A stretch of 40,068 bases of DNA from a virus (lineage: Duplodnaviria > Caudoviricetes). A program made the translations under genes and the position numbers. Location: IMG/VR virus record IMGVR_UViG_3300021197_001693, positions 1 through 40,068 of that record; one strand, written 5' to 3'. Of the stretch, positions 1 through 40,068 are shown piece after piece; within the stretch, counting starts at the first letter, position 1; every line of letters starts with the position of its first letter. Under the pieces are notes generated by a model. It searched no databases, was not told the DNA's origin, and worked only from the letters and a program-made list of their open reading frames with translations.

Positions 1-79
1 CTTGTACTTGTTGAGATTTACGCCCCATTGTAGCGGCTCTTTCTCTGTTTTGTTTAGCTCGTTTGGTTAGTCTGTACAT
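1..79 (-). CDS. 5' part of a 108-aa hypothetical phage protein that wraps the window ends
   Basis: ATG at 79 preceded by AAGGT. Reads MYRLTKRAKQNRERAATMGRKSQQVQ plus 1 nt, which joins 2 nt at 40068-40067 to make GCT and continues EKRLSND... Confidence 0.8.
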   Translation of the reverse strand, partial: MYRLTKRAKQNRERAATMGRKSQQVQ

Positions 80-100
80 AATTTATACCTTGCACGGTCT

Positions 101-119
101 AGATAACAACGTGTTAGTT
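101..119 (+). other. attI-like simple recombination site at the head of the cassette array
   Basis: AGATAAC-AACGT-GTTAGTT: inverse core, 5-bp spacer, then a GTT core. This is the geometry of an integron simple site, with no attC hairpin. Confidence 0.6.
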
Positions 120-386
120 TGCTTTTAGATTCAATTGGTTTGATGTGTAATAAGCAAAATCATCACAACTATCAACTAAATCAGATACATCATCATCACC
201 CTGTCTTGAGTTATTAGCTGCTAAATTCATACACTTTTCAAAAAGCATTATTCTATCCTCTGCCCTTTTAATGTATATTTCCTGTCTTTCTTTTAACTGT
301 TTTTCTGTCTCCCCACACCCAGAAAGCGAAACTAACAACACGCTCAAAAGGACAATTAACAGTTTGCTATTTTTAATTAAGTTCAT
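114..386 (-). CDS. Cassette 1: predicted lipoprotein
   Basis: Basic N-terminus, hydrophobic stretch LLIVLLSVLLVS and lipobox LSGC. GGAG SD upstream. The stop TAA is the TTA of core site 113-119. Confidence 0.8.
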   Translation of the reverse strand: MNLIKNSKLLIVLLSVLLVSLSGCGETEKQLKERQEIYIKRAEDRIMLFEKCMNLAANNSRQGDDDVSDLVDSCDDFAYYTSNQLNLKAN

Positions 387-448
387 TTTTTTATATCTCC
401 AAGTTATTTATTCGTGGCAGTTAATTGCCGTTTAGCTAAGGGTTATGT
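330..448 (+). repeat. attC site 1 (119 bp)
   Basis: R'' AACTAAC 330-336. Left arm GCT[C]AAAAGG[A]CAATTAAC pairs with GTTAATTGCCGTTTAGC, leaving two extrahelical bases (G and T on the bottom strand). R' GTTATGT 442-448. Confidence 0.88.
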
Positions 449-1180
449 TGCACTAATTCTATCTTGCGCAATCTTAAAGTATTCTTCGTCTAACTCTATA
501 CCGATAAATTTACGGTTTAGGTTTTTACAAGCTACCCCCGTACTGCCGCTACCCATAAATGGGTCAAGAATTGTTGCGCCACCTAAAGAATGGTTAGTTA
601 AAAACCTCTCTAATATTTCAACAGGTTTTATTGTTGGGTGTCCATAAAGCTTTTTATCTTTCTTGTTTATTTGCGAGCTGTAAACCATGCTTTTGCTATG
701 GTAATTACCAAGAATCTTAGATTTATTTCCTTTTATATAAACCCAATACTCGACATCGTTTAAATACTTAAAATTACATAGTGGTGCTGGGTTGGATTTA
801 TGCCAAACGCCAACGCCAACTTGTAATTTATTGCTTTCTGCCCAACAAATATAACTAGATAGTTGCTTCATGCTACAAAAGAACACGCCACAAAACTTTT
901 GCTTGTGATCAAACTTATCTAAACAAGCATCAAGAAAACCAGTTACATCAAAGCCACTTTTACACATTCCCATTTTATCAATGTTTCGTATAAAGTCGCG
1001 GTTATCTCTATCCATCATGCCACCACCAGAATTACTTATTTCATAAGGCGGATCTGTCAATATCATATCAACACTACCATCAGGTATTTCTTTCATTCGC
1101 TCAAGGCAATCACCGTGCATTAACCAAGGTTTTAATTGTTCTTTTTCTAACTCTGCTAGCCTTTCGTTTTCGTAGTGCAT
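443..1180 (-). CDS. Cassette 2: orphan DNA methyltransferase (N6-A/N4-C, beta class)
   Basis: GDCLE...DMILTDPPY catalytic motif precedes HPTIKP and [11 protein letters not shown] (SAM binding). No adjacent restriction enzyme recognised. Confidence 0.93.
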
Positions 1181-1207
1181 TTTACTCTCCTGTATTTAAT
1201 TCGTGCA

Positions 1208-1291
1208 ACATAACAAGGTTTTCAGGTCAGACTGCCAACAGTTTACTCGTTCCTCGCTGCCTTTTGTCAGCAGCCTAAAACGAGGTTAGTG
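1208..1291 (+). repeat. attC site 2 (84 bp)
   Basis: R'' ACATAAC 1208-1214. GTTTT[C]AGG...G[A]CTGCCAA pairs with TTGTCAGC...CCTAAAAC. R' GTTAGTG 1285-1291. The arms resemble Vibrio-type repeats (GACTGYCAAC...TTGTCAGC). Confidence 0.88.
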
Positions 1292-1579
1292 TGCCTTTGC
1301 GCCAAAATGTTCTTCAGCACAGGTTTTGCAATACCAAACTTGGCAATATAAACATCTATAAGCATAAATCAGCTTTATTTTTTTATGGCAACCGCACTTA
1401 ACTGTTGTTTTATCTGCTGCCATACCCCATCCCGCCTGTTCTTTTATCATTGCTAATTGAAATGATAAAAACTTAAATTTTTCTTCTCGCTGCTCTTCTG
1501 TTGCATTGCTTTTATAAATAGGCAAACTAACAACAGGCTCAATCGGACTTGCTACAGCTGGTTGTTTTTCATCTTTCAT
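1286..1579 (-). CDS. Cassette 3: small Cys/His-rich putative zinc-binding protein
   Basis: CGC...CLYC...CKTC...H at the C-terminus. AAGGTAG SD. The stop is the TTA of core site 1285-1291. Confidence 0.75.
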   Translation of the reverse strand: MKDEKQPAVASPIEPVVSLPIYKSNATEEQREEKFKFLSFQLAMIKEQAGWGMAADKTTVKCGCHKKIKLIYAYRCLYCQVWYCKTCAEEHFGAKAH

Positions 1580-1655
1580 TGTTTTTTCTACCTTATTTAT
1601 TCGTTGTAATATTTGCGCTCATAATCCGCAAGCGCGGTTAGCCTAAAGGCTATAA
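1525..1655 (+). repeat. attC site 3 (131 bp, R' degenerate GCT)
   Basis: R'' AACTAAC 1525-1531. AGGCT[C]AATCGGACTTGC pairs with GCAAGCGCGGTTAGCCT. The R' position reads GCTATAA (1649-1655). Confidence 0.75.
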
Positions 1656-2135
1656 CAAACCATTAACTTGCTTTAATAATTCAATTTCAGTACCAAATTG
1701 CGCTTCAAATGTTTCTTTACCTGCATGAATTGCCACACCATGACCACCAAGTCTATGATGTATTGAGCATAGACCGATAATTTCAAAATTACTTGACCTT
1801 AAACCCATACCACCAGAATTTATATGATGAACTTCACATGGTAATTGCTCAACCCCCATGTTTCTGCAAACAATACAACCAAGAGCAACAACCTTTTTAA
1901 TGTGCGCCTTTTCATCTGGTGAGTGCTGCTTGTTTTTAGAAAACTTATTTTTAGTTGGCTTATATAGCATAGCTCGTTCAATTTTCTTTAAATGCTGCTT
2001 ACGGGCTTTTTCCAATTGTATAGCTTTATACTCAGGACTTTTAACTTTGGCAAGGTTGCGTTCACGCTGCCTATATTGTGCGGCCTTTGCCTTTTCATAA
2101 GGCGTAAGTTTTGGTGTTTTGTTTTTAGGTATCAT
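1650..2135 (-). CDS. Ref-like recombination-enhancement (RecA-dependent HNH-type) nuclease
   Basis: GCIVC...EVHHI...GMG.R...IGLC..HHR...AIHAG...FGTE.ELL pattern with a basic N-terminal tail. Confidence 0.8.
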   Translation of the reverse strand: MIPKNKTPKLTPYEKAKAAQYRQRERNLAKVKSPEYKAIQLEKARKQHLKKIERAMLYKPTKNKFSKNKQHSPDEKAHIKKVVALGCIVCRNMGVEQLPCEVHHINSGGMGLRSSNFEIIGLCSIHHRLGGHGVAIHAGKETFEAQFGTEIELLKQVNGLL

Positions 2136-6348: not shown

Positions 6349-6370
6349 TCTTTATTTCTTTAAATCTTTA
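6349..6370. repeat. TCTTTA 8-bp-period repeat (site B)
   Basis: TCTTTATTTCTTTAAATCTTTA, identical to 7556-7577 and 26209-26230. Confidence 0.75.
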
Positions 6371-7539
6371 CTAAATAGGTAGACGTGGTATTTCTCTAAT
6401 GCTTGCCTTTTCTTTTCAAATGCATGTGTCTTAATATAAGTTTCATCAAGCTTTGATAAGGCATGGTTTAACAGCATTTCACCAATAATATAATCAACGC
6501 CACTATCTAACCAAATGGTTCTGGCTAACTTTCTAAGATCATGTGCTGTATACTTTCGTTTTGATATTTTCTGAACCATTACATTTGCAGCACTTTCAGA
6601 AATATAATCACTTCTTTGTGTAGGAAATAAATATTCACTTTTGCCAATAGTTCTTATTTGATAGGTTTTGTATTCTTTTAACATACGCTTGAAGCGCTTT
6701 GTTATTGGTAGAACTAATGCTGGTGATACTCCTTTTGTTATACTGGCTGGTAATGTCATTGTGTTATTTGTCATATCAAAATAACGCCACTTCATCATTC
6801 TAGTTTCGCCTATTCTGGTTCCATGCATCAACATAGTGGACGTTAACATTTTAACAAAGGTAATATCACCTCTAATACTTCTTAATAGCATAGGAACATC
6901 AACAGTGCTTAACGCTGAATCTTTTGGAAGTATCTTTTCTTTGCAAAAATCTTTAAATAACATTTCAGAAAGTGGATTGCCGTTTATTAGTCTTAATTCA
7001 TTGGCCTGTTTAAATGCGCTCTTTAATACGCTGAATATTTGTTTAATGGTTGATGGTTCATGTGATTCAAGCATTGGCATATAAAAGAAAGTATCAATAA
7101 AACTATGATGGAGATCTTTTATTTTTACATCTTTGAATGTTGGCAATAAATGATTGTTAATAGCATTAGCCGTATTCTTTTTAGTTTGCGGTTTTTTCTT
7201 GGGGTTTTTCTCTGTGCGATCTAAATGCCAAGCGAGCAATTTATCAACCATTGTATAATGAACAGCTGTTGCCGTTGAATCATGTAAGTTAACTTGAAGT
7301 TTAACCAATATGTCAGGCAATGCTTTTTTAATGGCTGATGTTGAAACAATGGGCCAGTTACCTATTTTACGGTAATGTGTTTCACCATTCTTAAAAATCA
7401 AACCATACCAGGAACCTTTTGTTCTATCAGTTCTAAACCTAAAGATCAGCGGTAATGATTGATCTCTTATCTCAAAAATAGCCCTTTTTGAAATATACGT
7501 TTTGATAACCTTATCGGACAATGCAACAGTAAAAGACAA
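6352..7539 (-). CDS. int: Tyrosine recombinase / phage integrase family
   Basis: HGTRIGE (R), TKG (K), HDLRK (HxxR), LLNH and ETYI (Y). N-terminal arm-binding-like and SAM-like domains. TTG start. Confidence 0.92.
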   Translation of the reverse strand: MSFTVALSDKVIKTYISKRAIFEIRDQSLPLIFRFRTDRTKGSWYGLIFKNGETHYRKIGNWPIVSTSAIKKALPDILVKLQVNLHDSTATAVHYTMVDKLLAWHLDRTEKNPKKKPQTKKNTANAINNHLLPTFKDVKIKDLHHSFIDTFFYMPMLESHEPSTIKQIFSVLKSAFKQANELRLINGNPLSEMLFKDFCKEKILPKDSALSTVDVPMLLRSIRGDITFVKMLTSTMLMHGTRIGETRMMKWRYFDMTNNTMTLPASITKGVSPALVLPITKRFKRMLKEYKTYQIRTIGKSEYLFPTQRSDYISESAANVMVQKISKRKYTAHDLRKLARTIWLDSGVDYIIGEMLLNHALSKLDETYIKTHAFEKKRQALEKYHVYLFSKDLKK

Positions 7540-7547
7540 AATAAACC

Positions 7548-7582
7548 CCTTTAATTCTTTATTTCTTTAAATCTTTATATTA
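7548..7582. repeat. TCTTTA 8-bp-period repeat x4 (site C), candidate parS/operator between divergent int and parA
   Basis: CCTTTA-AT-TCTTTA-TT-TCTTTA-AA-TCTTTA-TATTA about 40 bp upstream of parA. Confidence 0.75.
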
Positions 7583-7620
7583 TAGTTAGTTTCACAATAA
7601 CAAACCAAAGGTACTTAACA

Positions 7621-8271
7621 ATGAAAATAGCCGTTGTGAAACAAAAAGGTGGTACTGGTGCAAGTGCACTAGCAACCACATTAGCCGTTGAGTTAGCTAG
7701 ACATAGGAAATCATCAACTTTACTAATTGATTTAGATCCTAACCAGCAAACCAGTGCAAACCGTCTTAAAATGCGTTTAACGAACTGTGACGATATACAC
7801 AATGAATCGTCATTATATTTCAAAACAATCAATGATGGTAAAAAAGCCGTGAAAGAATCTAACGACTATTTTCACACTGTTTTTGATGGAGCAGCAACAG
7901 CAAGCCTTAGTACAGGTATTATATCACAAATCAGTGATCTAGTGCTTATACCCACTGGCTTTAGTAAGGATGATTTAGATCCAAATATTACTTTAGCTTA
8001 TGAATTAATGGATGCTGGTGTTCCTTGTGAAAATATTTATATTGTTTTTAGTAATGCTAGTGGCACTTATGCTGAAAAGCGTGAAGCGTTTAAATATTTA
8101 AAACAAACCGATGTTAAATTTCTTGAATTGGTGATAAACAATAAACCATGTTATAGGCAAGCTTTAAATTTAGGTAAGGTATTAACTGAAGTTTCTTTTC
8201 CTGGGCCTAAGAAAAAAGCTAAACAATTAATATGTGAATTATTTTTAATGAGAGGCTTAGATTATGAGTAA
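7621..8271 (+). CDS. parA: ParA-family partition ATPase (short, type Ib)
   Basis: Deviant Walker A QKGGTGAS, LLIDLDPNQQTS, VFDG and SDLVLIPT. No N-terminal HTH. Confidence 0.9.
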   Translation: MKIAVVKQKGGTGASALATTLAVELARHRKSSTLLIDLDPNQQTSANRLKMRLTNCDDIHNESSLYFKTINDGKKAVKESNDYFHTVFDGAATASLSTGIISQISDLVLIPTGFSKDDLDPNITLAYELMDAGVPCENIYIVFSNASGTYAEKREAFKYLKQTDVKFLELVINNKPCYRQALNLGKVLTEVSFPGPKKKAKQLICELFLMRGLDYE

Positions 8272-8479
8272 ATTAGGTGAAGCGCCAAGGCGTGGCTTTA
8301 AAAAAAATATGCTTAAGGCTAATTCGCCGAAGGATAAAAAGTTAGTAAATTTTGAAGCGACTTCTGATCAAGTGAAAATATGGAAGAACTTTTGTACTGA
8401 CAATAACGTTTCAATGAAGGAATTATTTACTGAAGGTGCAAAGCTTTATATAGAGCAAAAAGAACAAGGGAATGTTTAG
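8264..8479 (+). CDS. Small partition partner (ParG-like ribbon-helix-helix candidate)
   Basis: 71 aa overlapping the parA stop. Flexible basic N-terminus, then LVNFEA strand and two helices (WKNFC...VSMKELF). Confidence 0.7.
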   Translation: MSKLGEAPRRGFKKNMLKANSPKDKKLVNFEATSDQVKIWKNFCTDNNVSMKELFTEGAKLYIEQKEQGNV

Positions 8480-10714: not shown

Positions 10715-11575
10715 TTAGTGTTTAGTGTCTGACTGATGAAACAGATCAACGCCTATAGCGTTCATACGCTGCCATGTAAGCTTGCTAAACGCCTCATAGC
10801 TCATATCGTGTATTTGATCAGGATCTTGCTTCATAAGTGACTGTGCAACATCATAACGCCTATCATCAATTGACTTATTAGCAAGTTTAGCTTTTATTCT
10901 TCCAGCCCTTGCACCATGCTTTCTACTTTCCCACGCTTTCATAAAGATCATGTTTTTCTTTAATTGGCGAAGTTCACGAATAGTTGGCATTTGACCATCA
11001 GTGATCAAACCTTCTTGCTTGGCAATAAATAACTGATCACGTTGATTGTTAAGGCTTTCTAAGTTAGCCCCACATATTCTATAAAACTGATCTGTTAACA
11101 CTAATATTTTAGGGAACCATATTCCATTGGTACGATCCCAAACCATTCCGGTTCGTCCTGTTTTATCACCATCACATTGAACATAAGCCAAGCCAAAGCG
11201 GATCATTACATCATCAATAAAGCGGCTAACGCGGCAAACAGGAACCTTTGATTTGGTTTTTATCTTTACACCATTATCATCTTCAGTAATTGAATATGAT
11301 AATTCTTCAGCCATTTGTTCAAGGTTAAGTTCAATAATGCCTGTCACAAGATCATGACGATTTAAGATAAGCTCAAACATTGCTTGCATAAATGTTCTGC
11401 GGCAACGTTTAAAATCACGCTTGCGCCCCATAACAGAACGCAATTGAACGAATAGAGGATCACGCGATACATCACGCTTTTTTAAGAAATTATACGTTTT
11501 ACCAAGTTCACCTGGTAAGTTTTTCCAGTGTGCAGGACGTTGCCACACTGGATTAGTGTTTATACAATTGGACAT
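10715..11575 (-). CDS. repA: Plasmid replication initiator, IncFII RepA-like
   Basis: 286 aa. The order NTNPVW, GRKRDF...RR, HDLVT..IELNLEQMAEEL, VCRVSRFI...FGL, WD...G.WFPK.LVLTDQF parallels IncFII RepA. Confidence 0.75.
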   Translation of the reverse strand: MSNCINTNPVWQRPAHWKNLPGELGKTYNFLKKRDVSRDPLFVQLRSVMGRKRDFKRCRRTFMQAMFELILNRHDLVTGIIELNLEQMAEELSYSITEDDNGVKIKTKSKVPVCRVSRFIDDVMIRFGLAYVQCDGDKTGRTGMVWDRTNGIWFPKILVLTDQFYRICGANLESLNNQRDQLFIAKQEGLITDGQMPTIRELRQLKKNMIFMKAWESRKHGARAGRIKAKLANKSIDDRRYDVAQSLMKQDPDQIHDMSYEAFSKLTWQRMNAIGVDLFHQSDTKH

Positions 11576-14024: not shown

Positions 14025-17000
14025 TTATCTCTCGTTAGCAGGTCTTGCAAACATTAAATCATGCGTGAATTCCCAAACATCTTCTGGTTCATCTTGCCCT
14101 GTCATTATATCATAAATATATTCGCCAGTTATCCAGCCTTGTCTACCTGGTAAAGCACCCCAATAACTAGCGGCTAATACTGCGGCTTTAACATCACTCT
14201 TTGTTATTTCTTCACCAGCTGCGGCTTTGAATGGTATTTTAACAGCTTTAACGGTCTTTTCAAATGCATCAAATGCTGGTGATGCAGTGTAACCGTATGG
14301 ACCTAAACCATTAACCACATCGCGCACACCTACCACTGACATAAACGGGTACATACCGACATGTTTTGCTGCCCAAGGTAGCCAATCTTCATCTTCATCA
14401 GGAAACCTTGAAGCTGCCATTTCACCAAGTATTGCTGGTGCCATCCATAAAAATATAGAACTTGCAGCCAATTGCGGAACACTTAAATCACCTTTAACAA
14501 ACTGATAACCACGCTTTTTCAATAGGTTAAATAGTACATTAAAATAACTATAGAACATAGTGAACAATTTAAAAGTGTTTGAACCGCGCTGTATTTGCGC
14601 TAAATCCTTAATATTACCAGCTGATTGAGTAACACGAACCGTTCTATCTGCATATTGAATAGCCGCATTTTCATCACCCTTTGAAACGTTATCAACTAAA
14701 CCATCCATAGCTTGACGATAAGCACCTAACCAAGTAGGCATGGCAACACCCATATCAAGTAAACCTGTCATATAGAAGAACGATTGCCTAACAGCATCCA
14801 TTTTACCTTCTTTTTCAATACGCTTGATTGTGTCTTTTATATCACGGTCAAAAGTTTTTTGTCTGTTCTGCATCATAATAGAACGATCCATAACAAAATT
14901 ATACTTGGCTTGCATTTTTGATTTACTACCGTAAAAATCAGTTAAACCTTGCCAAGCGGACTTAACACCAATTTCATCAACTGATTGCAAGTAACCTAAT
15001 GGTTGAGCAAATGCGGTGGTAAACTTCCAACCCATATTAACAATGGTTGCTCCTGTTCTTGCTTTGGCAAATATTTCTTCCCAAGCACTAAATATTTGTT
15101 GGTTGTCTTGTGCAATACCTTGTAACCAAGGGCGAACTTGGCGGTACATTTGCTTACCTGCTGAACCCTCAATAGCCTTTTTAACACGTTCATTGTTAGT
15201 TATCTTGTCAACGTCCATTAAAGCGCGCCTATGCGTTAAATCATGGATAACGTTGTTCATGTGCCTACCAATAACATCTAATGTTAATTTTACTGGTCTA
15301 CCTGCAAAATCTGTACGTTCAATGGTGTGGCCTTTTTTAGTGGCTGGTTTTGTGTAACTATTTTCAAAAAGAGATTGATTAAAGTTCTTTTCATCACGCT
15401 TAAATACATCCCAACTTAACGAAGAATCACCCACTATTGGGTAATAACCACCATTAAAAGTGCCATGTTCATTTTTTATTTTAGTTGGTAAAACCTTTTC
15501 AGGAGCAAGACCAGTTAAATCTTTTTGAAGTCGCGCTGTTTCAGGCCATAATTCATCAATCATATCCCATACGGCTTGTACAGTTTCCCAATCCTTTTTG
15601 TCTAACTTGGCTAAGATTCTTTGAATTTGAACTTCATTCCAACCATAACCATCCATTAATGCTTTTTTGTTACCTGGATTACCCGTATTTAAAGCAGCTG
15701 ATAAAATAGCGGCTTTGTTCATTGCGCCAACGGTAGGAATGTTATATTTATCTGTGTACCACTTTGAGCGCTCTTTAGCGGTATAACGATCAAATATATC
15801 GGCGGTTTTTTTTGTATACTCACCTTGCATTGCTTGTTCTGCAATATCAGCATCAGCAAGTGGCTTAAATAATGTTCGCCATGCATCACCATTAGCTTTA
15901 TAACCATCAAGAAATTCAAACAAAAATTCCATCTTGGTATGGTAAGCAACAAAACCACTAGCTTTTTCTTTTAAGGTATCAACAAATGTTTTAGCAAAGT
16001 TTGGTTCATCATCTTTAACTTTATAGTTTGCTTCAATTGAAGAAACAACTGAATCAACCGAACTTTCAAAATCACGTTCAGCCTGATCAGACAGTAATTT
16101 ATTTTTAAAAGTGGCAATATGATCAATGTTTTGAACTGCATCTTTAAGACCAACTAGTTCTTCAACTGTTAAATCTTTCCAGTTAGTTACTAACGTTTGT
16201 TGAATTAATGATTCAGGAATATCAACAGTCCAACCATTTTCTTCTTGCTCAATAATGAAGCGTTCTAATGATTGACGTTTATTTAATGTTTTAAGTGATA
16301 CTTTTCTGAATTCTGTTTTCTCTAACAATGAATCAATTTGCTCAAGATAATCACCACCAGCTTTACCTATTTTTTCCCTGGTACTTCTTTTGTTAAATTT
16401 ATTAAGGTAACGAACTGCTATTTCAGTTTCTTGTGCAGCATCACGCGCAGCATTACCCATATAGAAATTTAGTATTTGACGTTGTTTAGCTTCAGCAGCT
16501 AAATCGAAGTCACCTGCTATTACTGCATCAATGGCTTGCTTTGCGGATTTACGTTCTGCCTGAACAAATAAGTTAGGATGAACATCACGTACTAATTTAC
16601 GGTTAATAGCATTATTAGCAGCTAATTGCATTTGATCAGCTGGTGTTGCTTTTTGTGCATTACGTGAACGTTTACTTAATGCTTCAAACTCTTTGTTTAA
16701 AACTTCAATTTGTTTAGTGTTGTGAACAGATTCCATTGCTTTAACTGGCAATGTACCATCGGTGTTCATATCACCGAACTTTTCACGCATACGTTCTTGA
16801 ACGGTAGCATCAAACGCATCTTTATATTTTGGCGCGTTAATAATATCTTGAAGCATTTGATCACCTGAAGAATAACCAAACAATATTGCTATATCATCTT
16901 GATGCGCTCCACCTTCAACAGTATAAACATACGGGCGCGGTAATTGTTTAAGGAAAGCAGTTCCGTAACGATCAACCAATGCCTGTTTATTTATTTTTTT

Positions 17001-20000
17001 ATGCTCCATTCCTTCAGGCAATGGACCTTCTACAAACTTGCCATGCTGAAGATACATTAATGATTGATAAGTTGGATTCTTTGAATATTCTATTGTTACT
17101 TCAGCTTCAGTTTCTTCTAATGCATCAGACCACCACTTAGTTTGCTCACGCTTCATTTCTTTGTACTGATCGTTGTTTACTTGTGCATTTGCTTCTTCTT
17201 TGGCAAGAATGGCATCTTTGCGGTAATTGGCAAATTCTTCATCCGTAAAACCTGCCTGTTCAGCACTTTCAAATAAACGGTCATAATACATTTGATCGGA
17301 CGTTTCACTAATTTGTTCATCAGTAGCCAGTAACCTATCAAAAACTGCACGAATTTCATCATTAATAGGAGCATTAAGGTTTTTAACTGAACGGTAAATA
17401 GCGACTAACCAAGCCCTGAATTTAGCAAAGGCTGTTTGAAGCTCTTTTGATGGTGCTTTACCTTCGCGCAAGTATGCCTCAAAACTACGGGCAAACTGTT
17501 CATGCTGTTCTGTTTTAAGATCACTAATGTCTTTTAACCCAAGCCAATCAGCAACAGTTTTTAAATCTGATTCAATGCTTGCACTCGCTTCACCACGCGC
17601 CAAAAGATCTTGTAATATTTCTAAATATAAGTGTCCTGACTCATGAAGCATTGTTGATAAATTAGCTGAATCAAAGAAAGTTATTTTAATTGGCTCTTTG
17701 GCTAAGTCTTTACCAAATTGAATTTGACCACGTTCTTTTTGTGAAAGTATGTTTGGTGATTCTGAAAAATCAGGATCAAATGCTGCATTAACTGAACGAA
17801 TCTGTGAGGGTTCAAACACTGCACCTTGCGGATATGTTTCATCTAATAAACCATCAAAACCTTGTGATTTTGCATATTCAGCTTTTTCACTTTCAGATAA
17901 AAGACGGAAAGAATATTGCTTTAATTGCTGTTCATTTAATGCTTTTTGTATTTTAGGATCAATATCTTCATTTATCGGTAAAGCTGAAACAAATTCATTA
18001 AAACTATCACGACCTTCAATCACTAATGGTTTTTCAAGTTTTATATACGTTGGCATTATATTAGCTGAACCACCAAGTTCAGCGGCTCTATTGGCGTATT
18101 TTTCTGCGGTAGCTGGATCTTTAGTTATAAATATACCTTCACCAATATAATCACCGCGATCTTCATTCCTACCAAATTCACTTAAATTAAATTCACTAAT
18201 GTCTGAAGCGGTTCCATAATACCAAATTGTTTCTGTATCAAAGCCCATTTCACGCGCTCTTTCTAAACGCGCTTCTTGGCTCATATCTAAACCTTTAGCA
18301 ACTGAACGTGACCATTCTAAAGCTTCACCTACTTGATCACCTTCATAACCTGTTTCTTGCGCTTGCTGAAGAACCGTTTCATCATCAATACTAACTTCAT
18401 CACTTTCAAGCAAGGCTTTGATTTCTTCATTGCTCATAGTGTGAATATCAATACCTGTACGTTCTAGGTAATCTTGAAATTCTAATAATGATTGGCGTTC
18501 ACCAATTAAATTCTGTTGGCCTTGTTGTTCACTGAATACTGGATCACCCGAAAGTTCACGGTCTATTGCTTCAAGCACTAAATCAGGATCAGCAGCCGAA
18601 ATATAACCTTGTTCAAATAACTGATCAGAAATTCTATCAAGACTTAAACCTTCTTCTTGAATAGCACGTTTTTGGAATGGTTTTAAATCAGCATCAATAT
18701 CACGAGCGGCTAATTCGCCACCTTCATCATAAATTCCAACCTCACGAATTCTATCAATGATTGAAGCACCAAATGCATCTTGCTGTTTTGGCACATCATC
18801 TTCACGAATACGATTAATGATCGTATCAAGGTTAATATCATACATACCTGCTTTTAGTTCTTCAGGTAATTCACGCTTGATAGATGGCCCGTAACGTGTC
18901 CAAAGTTTACTAACTTCAATTCCTGTACGTTCAGCCAAGGTGTTAAATACTGATTGCATTTGAATAGCGCTGGTTTCTGAATCAACTTCACTCATACCAG
19001 TAGCTTTTAATTGTTTAACTAGATCATCCATAATAAATTGTGAAGGATCTTGCTGATTAATGGTTTCAGTTGCACTTGTAATCATATCTTGAATGCGTTG
19101 TTCATTTTCTTCTTGCCAAACACGCGCTTCTTTAGGTGTCATTTCTTCAGGATGAAAACGAGCATTATCAAGTAAATCATTATGATATTCACTCGCGGCT
19201 AATGTATCAGCATAAGCTTCAAGCGGAATAACTAAATCAGTTTGTGTCGCTATGGCTTCACGGTATGCAACACCATTATCTCCCATAACTTGGGCGGCAA
19301 CTTGTTCAGGATCTAAATTTTTACTTTGAAAATACGTTTGCCATTCTGGTGATGTAACCATCACATTTTTAACAGTGCCATTTTCTTTTATATTTTTAAC
19401 TAATTCACGGAACTTTTCAGGAACACGTTGTTTTGTTTTTGAGTTAGCGCTTAATTCACCAAGGCTTTCCATCATAGCTTTGTTTTTATCAGCCTTTTTA
19501 ACTTTGGTGTAATCAATGGCTAAATTTGCACTTGGGCCTGGTAAACCTAAAAGAACAGCAGCCTTTAATGAAGTATCAGCTGTTTGTAATATCCGTTCAC
19601 CATAATCACCAACATCAGCCTGAACAAAATTACCTTCATAACCTTTTGCCGCTTCACCTGCGATCATGGTTACAAGCTCTTGTGCAACATCGGTTAATAC
19701 TTGTGTTGAAACTAATGTTCCATAACGTTTACCAAAATCTGTAAATGCTCTTAATACATTAGGGTTTTTCAACGCTTCTTTAACTAAAGCCGTTCCACCT
19801 TTACCAAGTATTTTATCAGCACCAGGTATTGATTTAGTTAATGCATCAAATGAAATTAATTCAAGGCCAGAATTAATTGAACCAGCGGTTATTGCGGCAA
19901 GCTTGGCAACTTCATCATCAAGTGGTTGATCATTAATATCACGGTAATCAAGAAATTCATCATAAGCAAAACCTGTTTGCAATGAAAATGATTCTTGTAA

Positions 20001-20765
20001 TGCCCCTGCTTTCCAACCTAAACCTAAACCCGTTAGTGTTGCAGCTGGAACCGTTACTATTTCTTCAGGTAATGCGACTTGCGGCCCCATTTGACCAACA
20101 GCTAAAGCACCACCACCAAACGAAACACCACCAGCTAGTGAAGTCCAACCAGCTGTTCTTGCTGTTTCAATTAATTGTGGCACTTGCTTTGAAGCTTCAA
20201 GTAATGATTCTTGAAGCCAACTATCAGCACCAAAATTACTGTGTTGATCTACTTTTAGTTCTTCAATTAAAGATAACTGATCATCAGTTAATTCACCTTT
20301 GATTTGCTGAAAACGCAAACGAGCTAGATCAATTTGATTATAACCTTGCTTAAACGCTTTCTTTGGTGCTTGAAACAACCATTCTAAGCCAGTTAATGAT
20401 TCAGTATCATCATGTGAAAGCTTGGCGTTATCTTCATTCTGAAGGTAGTTTGAAACTATCGGTGATTGTTGTCGAAATTGTTTAGGATCAAAATCAGCAC
20501 GTTTTGATTCCTTTTCAATATCATCTAAATTTCTGGTGATTAAATCGGTAGGTAAGCCAGTTCTCATTTGTTGTTTAAGAACTCGCGCTTGTTGATCAGG
20601 ATTAGTATTTTGAGCAATGTTTAATGAAGAAGTTAGTGTTGTATCTTTTTGTGCGTTTGCGTTTAAATGCCAATCTTCAAAATCAGATTTTTCTTCTGAA
20701 TCTAAAACGCTTTGTTCAGGTTTTCTTATTGTGTTTTTTTGATACCAATTGTCGAAGTCGGACAT
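14025..20765 (-). CDS. Very large internal virion / DNA-ejection protein (2246 aa) with ART-like and HExxH domains
   Basis: Position after two smaller ejection proteins. WYYGT...GEGIFIT...AEKYA...FEPSQIRS ART-like block. STMLHESGHLYLE...EQFARSFEAYL zincin-like block. Confidence 0.82.
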   Translation of the reverse strand: MSDFDNWYQKNTIRKPEQSVLDSEEKSDFEDWHLNANAQKDTTLTSSLNIAQNTNPDQQARVLKQQMRTGLPTDLITRNLDDIEKESKRADFDPKQFRQQSPIVSNYLQNEDNAKLSHDDTESLTGLEWLFQAPKKAFKQGYNQIDLARLRFQQIKGELTDDQLSLIEELKVDQHSNFGADSWLQESLLEASKQVPQLIETARTAGWTSLAGGVSFGGGALAVGQMGPQVALPEEIVTVPAATLTGLGLGWKAGALQESFSLQTGFAYDEFLDYRDINDQPLDDEVAKLAAITAGSINSGLELISFDALTKSIPGADKILGKGGTALVKEALKNPNVLRAFTDFGKRYGTLVSTQVLTDVAQELVTMIAGEAAKGYEGNFVQADVGDYGERILQTADTSLKAAVLLGLPGPSANLAIDYTKVKKADKNKAMMESLGELSANSKTKQRVPEKFRELVKNIKENGTVKNVMVTSPEWQTYFQSKNLDPEQVAAQVMGDNGVAYREAIATQTDLVIPLEAYADTLAASEYHNDLLDNARFHPEEMTPKEARVWQEENEQRIQDMITSATETINQQDPSQFIMDDLVKQLKATGMSEVDSETSAIQMQSVFNTLAERTGIEVSKLWTRYGPSIKRELPEELKAGMYDINLDTIINRIREDDVPKQQDAFGASIIDRIREVGIYDEGGELAARDIDADLKPFQKRAIQEEGLSLDRISDQLFEQGYISAADPDLVLEAIDRELSGDPVFSEQQGQQNLIGERQSLLEFQDYLERTGIDIHTMSNEEIKALLESDEVSIDDETVLQQAQETGYEGDQVGEALEWSRSVAKGLDMSQEARLERAREMGFDTETIWYYGTASDISEFNLSEFGRNEDRGDYIGEGIFITKDPATAEKYANRAAELGGSANIMPTYIKLEKPLVIEGRDSFNEFVSALPINEDIDPKIQKALNEQQLKQYSFRLLSESEKAEYAKSQGFDGLLDETYPQGAVFEPSQIRSVNAAFDPDFSESPNILSQKERGQIQFGKDLAKEPIKITFFDSANLSTMLHESGHLYLEILQDLLARGEASASIESDLKTVADWLGLKDISDLKTEQHEQFARSFEAYLREGKAPSKELQTAFAKFRAWLVAIYRSVKNLNAPINDEIRAVFDRLLATDEQISETSDQMYYDRLFESAEQAGFTDEEFANYRKDAILAKEEANAQVNNDQYKEMKREQTKWWSDALEETEAEVTIEYSKNPTYQSLMYLQHGKFVEGPLPEGMEHKKINKQALVDRYGTAFLKQLPRPYVYTVEGGAHQDDIAILFGYSSGDQMLQDIINAPKYKDAFDATVQERMREKFGDMNTDGTLPVKAMESVHNTKQIEVLNKEFEALSKRSRNAQKATPADQMQLAANNAINRKLVRDVHPNLFVQAERKSAKQAIDAVIAGDFDLAAEAKQRQILNFYMGNAARDAAQETEIAVRYLNKFNKRSTREKIGKAGGDYLEQIDSLLEKTEFRKVSLKTLNKRQSLERFIIEQEENGWTVDIPESLIQQTLVTNWKDLTVEELVGLKDAVQNIDHIATFKNKLLSDQAERDFESSVDSVVSSIEANYKVKDDEPNFAKTFVDTLKEKASGFVAYHTKMEFLFEFLDGYKANGDAWRTLFKPLADADIAEQAMQGEYTKKTADIFDRYTAKERSKWYTDKYNIPTVGAMNKAAILSAALNTGNPGNKKALMDGYGWNEVQIQRILAKLDKKDWETVQAVWDMIDELWPETARLQKDLTGLAPEKVLPTKIKNEHGTFNGGYYPIVGDSSLSWDVFKRDEKNFNQSLFENSYTKPATKKGHTIERTDFAGRPVKLTLDVIGRHMNNVIHDLTHRRALMDVDKITNNERVKKAIEGSAGKQMYRQVRPWLQGIAQDNQQIFSAWEEIFAKARTGATIVNMGWKFTTAFAQPLGYLQSVDEIGVKSAWQGLTDFYGSKSKMQAKYNFVMDRSIMMQNRQKTFDRDIKDTIKRIEKEGKMDAVRQSFFYMTGLLDMGVAMPTWLGAYRQAMDGLVDNVSKGDENAAIQYADRTVRVTQSAGNIKDLAQIQRGSNTFKLFTMFYSYFNVLFNLLKKRGYQFVKGDLSVPQLAASSIFLWMAPAILGEMAASRFPDEDEDWLPWAAKHVGMYPFMSVVGVRDVVNGLGPYGYTASPAFDAFEKTVKAVKIPFKAAAGEEITKSDVKAAVLAASYWGALPGRQGWITGEYIYDIMTGQDEPEDVWEFTHDLMFARPANER

Positions 20766-36343: not shown

Positions 36344-36928
36344 TTAATCTTGCTTTTCAACATCTATAATTTCAGGTTCAGGTTTTACCCAAGGAAATTC
36401 TATATCAACGCAACTATCCTTAGAAGTAAAAGTACAACCATCTGGTTCACGGAATATTTTCCCATCAAGCCAATATGCTATTCCATCTTTACCTTTTTTG
36501 AATACAGTTCCGCAACGCTTGTTTTGATAAGTATCACTTTCAGAACAAATATGATTCCATTCTTCATCTTCACCAGTAAGAGGTGTTAACGGTTCAAACC
36601 TGGCTAACTTTTCAAACATACTTATACAATAAGGTGCTGAAAAACCAGAATGACCTTGATTAGAAAAAACACTTAAAAGTTCAATAATATTTTTACAAAT
36701 CCACTTATTCGGATCTTCTTCTTTTTGCTCTAAATCATAACCAGCAAATTCAAGTTCACGTTTAGCATGATGAATGTAATTACTATTGTACGCTTGCTTG
36801 AATCTATGACTAACAAGCCACGCGTTAATTTTATTGATTAAACGATTAAATAGAAAAACACCTAATGCACGTTTAACTTTATACTTGAACGGTTCTTTGT
36901 GTACTAATGCACCATTAACATCTGACAT
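36344..36928 (-). CDS. Conserved hypothetical phage protein
   Basis: QGHSGFSA...PLTPLTGEDEEW...QNKRC..VFK motif set seen in phage proteins. Confidence 0.75.
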   Translation of the reverse strand: MSDVNGALVHKEPFKYKVKRALGVFLFNRLINKINAWLVSHRFKQAYNSNYIHHAKRELEFAGYDLEQKEEDPNKWICKNIIELLSVFSNQGHSGFSAPYCISMFEKLARFEPLTPLTGEDEEWNHICSESDTYQNKRCGTVFKKGKDGIAYWLDGKIFREPDGCTFTSKDSCVDIEFPWVKPEPEIIDVEKQD

Positions 36929-39820: not shown

Positions 39821-40068
39821 TTAATTATTAAAAACGTGAACCCTTGGAAAAGCTTTTCTTATCCATTCTAACACTCTACTCCAACCAATTCTTGACTTCC
39901 ATAATTCGCTGTTAATATAGCAATCATAACAATCAATACGGCTAGAGCGTCTTAGTTCCATAGTTTTAGTTATAGTCTCACCGCAGTCATAGTCGGTTAT
40001 AGTAATTACACGCCTTAATTTTGGTGGTTGCCAAATAGTGCAAGGATCATTAGATAAACGCTTTTCAG
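39821..40068 (-). CDS. 3' part of the 108-aa hypothetical protein that wraps the window ends
   Basis: Open frame EKRLSNDPC...[14 protein letters not shown]...RIDCY...[11 protein letters not shown]...PRVHVFNN*, in frame with 79..1. Confidence 0.8.

Follow-up and report, generated by a model that had tools for sequence, protein, structure and literature searches.

Reversed attC cassettes with a putative attI-type site and a linked small gene in a likely phage-plasmid that lacks an integron integrase

Introduction

Clusters of attC sites without an integrase (CALINs) have already been described in bacteriophages, and are the closest known counterpart of the locus reported here. The passages of Qi et al. 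2023 (PMC9892861) drawn on here describe 17 phage CALINs with methyltransferase cassettes, and recombination at five of six sites. In PH101, two sites of which were shown to recombine, four attC hits lie on the + strand and the annotated genes between them on the - strand, as in the genome analysed here; unlike the genes in our genome, those of PH101 neither stop in the R' box nor start in attC. The TJE1 array, again unlike ours, is forward. The same passages call both arrays typical and do not remark on the antisense genes. In integrons the cassettes are normally in line with the Pc promoter, whereas the phage cassettes considered here are antisense to attC; for the normal orientation of cassettes and for strand choice we rely on parts of PMC5027507. 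Selected sections of PMC8946536 state that non-cognate pairs of attI and IntI are generally inefficient and that attI1 has extra binding sites, and report that an unknown factor is suspected for a chromosomal integron.

Here we analyse the 40,068-base genome of a marine phage, referred to throughout, at its full length, as the window. Like the phage CALINs it has several attC sites, no intI and methyltransferase-type cassette content; it also has an attI-type site with a dedicated small gene, a pairing not described in the portions of PMC9892861 consulted. An initial annotation, made from the sequence alone, had offered the locus as a candidate for an undescribed system, which was too strong in view of the published phage attC clusters without an integrase and of the PH101 genes antisense to attC (PMC9892861, same portions). 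The locus is known in outline, as a phage CALIN, and its array is real but partly decayed.

Results

Genome setting and organization of the array

The window is the whole record, and its two ends meet within one gene, marking the junction of a circle. It encodes tailed-phage portal, capsid, terminase and tail proteins together with RepA (IncFII type), ParA and a phage-type tyrosine recombinase (6352-8479, 10715-11575), a combination from which we take the genome to be likely a phage-plasmid. As the initial annotation had stated, intI is absent: protein and profile comparison of the window genes found neither the gene nor an IntI product. Other genes of the window include one for a polyvalent protein of 2,246 aa with LPD22 and ART-PolyVal domains (14025-20765), and one (36344-36928) whose product strongly matches the Tad3 Thoeris-inhibitor family (PF25185, E 4e-44); a short TAAC...GTTA match resembling a simple site (36808-36830, 14.2 bits) in the Tad3-like gene is probably due to chance.

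The cassette array is placed between a Ref-like nuclease gene and the small gene that spans the junction, all of these genes being on the - strand (Table 1). The cassette boundaries coincide with G|TT, where the bar marks the point of crossover. The unpaired C of the L'' box lies on the + strand, which makes this the top strand and all three ORFs antisense to attC, as initially annotated; the usual arrangement, a top-strand ORF ending near R'', was not encountered. The opposite attC polarity, under which the genes would be ordinary, is ruled out by the position of the unpaired C together with the strand of the covariance-model matches described below. Inversion through top-strand recombination, as treated in parts of PMC5027507, was rejected as well: every gene runs antisense to the attC of its own cassette, and the attC sites all share the orientation of the attI-type site.

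Table 1. Features at the head of the array and within it, in window coordinates
Feature	Position	Strand	Remarks
Small attI-linked gene, 108 aa	5' part 1..79, 3' part 39821..40068 (across junction)	-	Full frame in L054
Palindrome ACCTTGCACGGT	87..98	.	26 bases before the crossover G; 7 bases from the small-gene start codon; sole copy in window
attI-type core	101..119	+	TAAC-5 nt-G|TTAG; putative crossover between 113 and 114
Cassette 1	114..442	+ (top strand)	ORF 114-386 on -, 90-aa lipoprotein; start codon and signal peptide inside attC1
attC1	330-448	+	R'' AACTAAC, L'' GCT(C)AAA, L' TTTAGC, R' GTTATGT; intact
Cassette 2	443..1285	+	ORF 443-1180 on -, N6/N4 DNA methyltransferase; ends complementary 14/15
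attC2	1208-1291	+	R'' ACATAAC, L'' TTT(C)AGG, L' CCTAAA, R' GTTAGTG; weak stem
Cassette 3	1286..1649	+	ORF 1286-1579 on -, 97-aa cysteine-rich protein; start codon inside attC3
attC3	1525-1655	+	R'' AACTAAC, L'' GCT(C)AAT, L' GGTTAGC, R' GCTATAA; degenerate
Ref-like nuclease gene	1650..2135	-	Fixed flank; TAG stop within altered R' box of attC3

The stop codon of each ORF is the TTA of the G|TTA on its left (114, 443 and 1286), inside the R' box, and two of the three ORFs begin within their own attC. The two ends of a cassette match over 11, 14 and 12 of 15 bases in cassettes 1, 2 and 3 (random pairs, 1.5%, 0/20,000 and 0.3%, respectively); cassettes 1 and 3 cross-match, so that the 15-base end match is specific for cassette 2 only. 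The lipoprotein and DNA methyltransferase labels given initially hold in domain and family searches, and the 'Zn-binding' label of the cassette-3 protein derives from its cysteine spacing only. Single-protein searches of viral contigs returned no relatives of the Ref-like, lipoprotein or cassette-3 proteins. A search for a Pc-like promoter reading into the array gave six promoter-like matches against 7.6 expected, with none on the + strand before position 113. On the minus strand at 1649-1667, at the end of the Ref-like gene, there is a second core of attI-like type (TAAT-5 nt-GTTA) that faces the opposite way and may be a chance occurrence.

Three public sequencing runs contain related sequence at a small share, and no RNA run is among those listed. 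One low-depth contig from these runs shows two differences from cassette 1 over positions 104-368, another begins at 441 and is preceded by 243 unlike bases, and further ones span 1068-1216 and 1527-1644; contig X1 joins position 83 to 1866, its intervening sequence being unread.

The three attC sites differ in quality

An attC covariance model was built from 19 unrelated sites belonging to two bacterial-type arrays and to phage TJE1. Among its 15 matches in the 40 kb window attC1 ranks first (25.3 bits, E 7e-4, the only match above 20 bits) and attC2 second (16.3 bits, E 0.1); attC3 is not among the 15, and a relative of it in locus L006 reaches 24.9 bits. The same model finds no attC in P12002L, H188, 3/49 or H103, and thus overlooks sites reported by other pipelines. 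A custom attC scorer, tuned after the sites were known, places the three sites at ranks 1-3 in the window, and 0/384 shuffles contained three such same-strand sites inside 1.7 kb; its stricter first version found attC1 and not the other two. An Rfam search gave no relevant family.

Unconstrained folding produces the attC shape for attC1 only, and the bottom-strand z values of 0.37, -1.42 and -1.13 for attC1 to attC3 are in no case significant. Constrained folding probabilities are 0.14, 2e-3 and 3e-8, set against 0.014-0.84 for 11 comparison sites, and they rise to 0.41, 0.035 and 8e-4 in the form of the excised circle, in which the R boxes (R'' against the cassette's own 5' end) pair at 7/7, 7/7 and 6/7 positions. 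The R' core of attC3 reads GCT in place of the conserved GTT, the boxes being otherwise present.

The initial annotation had described three attC hairpins, and their coordinates, boxes and polarity stand, except that attC3 has lost the GTT of its R' box. The check that it had proposed, an attC covariance model, recognizes attC1 and attC2 and misses attC3, and the fold that it described for the bottom strands is obtained by unconstrained folding for attC1 only. We conclude that attC1 and attC2 are credible sites and that attC3 is decayed, and probably dead. With at least two attC sites within a few kb and intI not nearby, the array qualifies as a CALIN.

attC families in other phages, and a CRISPR spacer

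The attC1 and attC3 families occur with other genes and other neighbours. A left-arm pattern search found eight stretches in six viral contigs; where the composition is similar, the arrays are reversed. The attC1 family recurs in L008, L009 and L012, where the left arm encodes the lipoprotein start and a hydrophobic signal peptide; the lipoprotein body that follows is related to that of the window in L008 and unrelated in L009 and L012. The attC3 family recurs in L006, L010, L013, L017 and L020, with an intact GTT in the three scored copies (L006, L010 and L013), and six further, unrelated ORFs begin with the same N-terminal peptide, which its arm supplies. DNA queries with attC1 and attC3 returned chance-level matches only from cultured phages. 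The eight hits of the attC pattern in GTDB genomes comprise two phage-like contigs, one prophage-like region, one CRISPR spacer and four that are apparently chance, with none in a chromosomal integron array. One complete phage record, L025, has the same reversed cassette ORF twice (7-264 and 946-1203), which is a sign of repeated insertion.

A CRISPR array of a Colwellia genome contains, among 28 spacers read, one (L018:5998-6030) that matches the attC3 arm (window 1528-1559). The match is 32/32 in four other loci and 31/32 in the window, and the target is preceded by CC; we take the repeat to be of type I-F and this CC to be its PAM. Because the spacer fits other phages better, it indicates a host group rather than the window phage's own host, and the window mismatch, at spacer position 2, is a possible escape change. 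As the targeted attC arm is shared, a single spacer would cover several phages. The Colwellia genome with this spacer has an IntI.

A conserved module at the head of the array

The core and the breakpoint pattern suggest that an attI-type site heads the array. Beside it is the small gene, divergent from the array and at the place where intI normally sits, with the palindrome overlapping its ribosome-binding region. This wrap-around gene had initially been treated as a mere flank, and the attI core and the palindrome had been missed; it is instead the conserved head of the system. Homologues were collected as 85 loci from viral or metagenome contigs and 17 from genomes, in which the gene points away from the conserved site. 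We examined 101 (L054, identical to the window, was left out), of which seven were too short, leaving 94 evaluable. In 76 of the 94 the palindrome is followed by GTT at a distance of exactly 25 or 26 bases (about 3% expected per palindrome), the spacing having been first read off displayed loci and counted afterwards, and the 76 represent 69 distinct downstream sequences. Conservation drops to background about 10 bases past the crossover G. No site at the usual spacing is found in the other 18/94.

A subgroup of eight loci (L078, L082, L084-L087, L089 and L107) has a similar palindrome with no GTT at the usual distance.

The attC model was applied to 253 kb upstream and 312 kb downstream of the gene. 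In 84 loci, 73 of 74 hits lie upstream of the gene on the strand consistent with attI, and none lies on the other strand. IntI is absent from L023-L107 and from all five whole viral records, three of which are at least 90% complete. Among the relatives obtained, none has an empty site or differs by a single cassette.

The small protein has no match in Pfam, PHROG, NCBIfam, PDB or Atlas families. Its predicted model (pLDDT 84) consists of a long basic helix, four strands and a helix, for which a structural search gave a best Z of 3.9 (rmsd 2.8 over 57 residues) and no clear fold match; the missing match does not count as evidence for a new fold. A likeness to the arm-binding domain of integrases is unsupported (match probability 0.2%). 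The gene changes mainly at third codon positions, and its family comprises 31 close relatives and 260 clusters at 50% identity, with 0 matches in 50,697 cultured-phage records. A fusion search gave one longer protein among 7,996 candidates; of 12 longer family members scanned, four have other domains (UbiA, HNH, N6 methyltransferase and partial phage integrase, each once) and are probably read-throughs. The possibility that the small gene is itself a cassette was rejected, as the loci displayed have no G|TT boundary at its stop.

Phage and chromosomal formats of the same module

Cassette orientation differs between the two settings. In chromosome-like loci 31 of 33 cassettes are forward, none is reverse and two are unclear, whereas 52 cassettes of phage-like loci (L006-L020 included) divide into 31 reverse, four forward and 17 unclear; a reverse ORF with its stop in R' is found in 27/52 and 2/33, respectively. 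In this count, hits below 22 bits and four duplicate loci were dropped, and the chromosome and phage labels were assigned by hand, partly after the orientation was known. In a tree of the small protein the chromosomal members form one clade (100/98), including two members without a site. L056, which has a forward cassette, falls next to the closest relatives of the window, a placement indicating that one type of site takes both cassette formats.

Among 401 genomes of the order around the Colwellia genome the small gene is present in ten, three of them with three copies each and several copies being broken. IntI is encoded elsewhere in 9/10 of these module genomes (on another contig, or 100 kb to >1 Mb away) against 173/401 in the sample, with p about 0.003, computed by hand and uncorrected for kinship or genome completeness; the exception is G402, which has three copies of the gene and in which no IntI was found. 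The core of the chromosomal module, CTAATAAGCTG|TTA, is also the core of the attI beside a true intI in L129, L133 and L134. A broken copy of the small gene on a Pseudoalteromonas plasmid is accompanied by the core and a forward HNH gene. In L129, L130, L133, L134 and L135 the attI next to the true intI has in each case its own, different palindrome right before the core.

Discussion

A proposed mechanism

On balance we consider it rather probable that the locus is an integron platform without an integrase of its own, made up of an attI-type site, a palindrome, a small divergent gene and three reversed cassettes. In this reading a host IntI is the likely agent of cassette insertion at G|TT, and the small protein, probably bound to the palindrome, is likely to assist or control the reaction. 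With greater confidence, 101-119 may be regarded as an attI used in trans by host IntI. That reversed cassettes were captured through integron-type recombination, with IntI supplied in trans as the initial annotation had proposed, appears well supported by comparison, namely by the G|TT breakpoints, the attC families with other neighbours, the lack of a phage IntI and the presence of an IntI in the Colwellia genome that has a CRISPR spacer against the attC3 family.

The sequence itself shows cassettes that are bounded by G|TT and in which each attC pairs best with the first bases of its own cassette, as it would in an excised circle, and comparison of loci shows a module that is conserved up to the crossover and variable beyond it. 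Host IntI would act in trans on the phage or on its plasmid-like prophage form. The cassettes are built backward, with the stop in R' and often a start and leader peptide in attC, and are co-oriented with the upstream phage genes, so that they could be transcribed from the promoter of those genes and expression would not need Pc. In what is the weakest step, the basic small protein would recognize the palindrome 25-26 bases from the crossover and render the attI usable by any resident IntI. Cassette 3 would now be fixed, because its R' has lost the GTT, and cassettes 1 and 2 may still excise.

Alternative explanations

The main rival to a recombination helper is that host IntI alone serves the attI and the cassettes, and that the small protein only regulates transcription through the palindrome, from its own or a Pc-like promoter, or hitch-hikes beside the site. 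In most phage loci 0-12 bases separate the palindrome from the start codon, chromosomal copies have two or three palindromes in tandem in the manner of operators, and the position of the palindrome over the ribosome-binding region fits autoregulation equally well. Several chromosomal copies of the gene contain stops while their attI and cassettes persist, from which the small protein may be dispensable after loading, and the attI sites linked to intI share the core with neither the small gene nor the module palindrome (0/9). Against this, the distance from palindrome to crossover is fixed at 25-26 bases whereas that from palindrome to start codon varies from 0 to 48, and the pairing of gene and attI is maintained across family members of 32-85% identity. 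The fixed spacing, taken with the inefficiency of non-cognate attI and IntI pairs (PMC8946536, in the sections used), leads us to prefer a recombination helper and to regard a purely regulatory or passive role as unlikely; that inefficiency and the extra binding sites of attI1 (same sections) would also give a helper a task.

A dead attC3 and a weak attC2 speak for the array being a relic, in which IntI would have placed the cassettes in the past, at attI or at secondary GWT sites, and ordinary mosaic recombination of phages at shared attC arms would be the sole means of exchange today. The arms double as protein leaders and could be preserved without recombination, methyltransferase relatives in cultured phages lack attC flanks in 5/5 loci examined, and IntI is reported to insert at bare GWT sites (10.1101/2022.09.11.507474, as excerpted). 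This explanation seems to us improbable, however, as the breakpoints are at G|TT and not within the shared arms, attC1 is intact with a folding probability of 0.14-0.41, and the arrays are confined to one side and one strand of the module. Catalysis of the exchange by the phage's own tyrosine recombinase (6352-7539), or by the small protein, we judge very improbable. The window does encode such a recombinase, and a phage-type integrase lies within 0.6 kb after the small gene in seven loci (L024, L025, L055-L058 and L104), but the window enzyme is of phage type, sits at a distance of 4.7 kb and gave only poor alignments with two IntI proteins; of 27 viral loci whose downstream DNA was long enough, just two had such an integrase in a comparison limited to three queries, no recombinase fold was found in the 108-aa small protein, and no recombinase adjoins the chromosomal modules.

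Significance and comparison with known systems

Beyond the recombination-helper reading that we favour, we tentatively raise a broader possibility, in which the small protein would be a fourth integron part: a protein of mobile elements that binds a palindrome 25-26 bases from the attI crossover and lets an integrase-less site recruit a non-cognate host IntI, with phages running a back-to-front cassette pool of their own and chromosomes seeding satellite arrays. If so, the attC hairpins of phage cassettes would be the source not only of a start codon and a ribosome-binding site but also of a lipoprotein signal peptide, and many CALINs would have a concrete origin. The module suggests, in a form open to test, where cassette arrays that lack an integrase may come from, and the small protein is a candidate factor for attI recombination. 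The locus also shows phages employing integron-type sites for accessory genes of their own, which in this genome include a methyltransferase and a lipoprotein; the format is the reverse of that of bacterial cassettes, and the recombination hairpin doubles as a protein leader.

Two features were not found in print: reversed cassettes that use attC as the gene start, and an integrase-less attI module with a conserved small gene common to phages and chromosomes. Searches of the open-licence literature (PMC and bioRxiv) turned up no account of phage cassettes whose genes are antisense to attC, of a small gene replacing intI, or of one module heading both phage and chromosomal rows of cassettes.

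With the sedentary chromosomal and class 1 integron platforms the module has in common the attI core, the G|TT crossover, a divergent gene at the head and single-gene cassettes bounded by attC, and with attI1 it shares extra repeated sites upstream of the core (DR1 and DR2 of attI1; PMC8946536, in the sections used). Unlike those platforms, its divergent gene encodes not IntI but a 108-aa protein of a family with no known match, its upstream site is a palindrome without GTT, and the intI beside attI that marks a complete integron is absent from the window. A parallel to the proposed use of an integrase in trans is provided by the SALINs and attG insertions of Loot et al. (10.1101/2022.09.11.507474, in the portions drawn on here), in which cassettes are likewise set away from intI by an integrase in trans; those insertions use bare GWT targets, whereas the target in the module appears to be a conserved, repeatedly used site of attI type with a linked gene.
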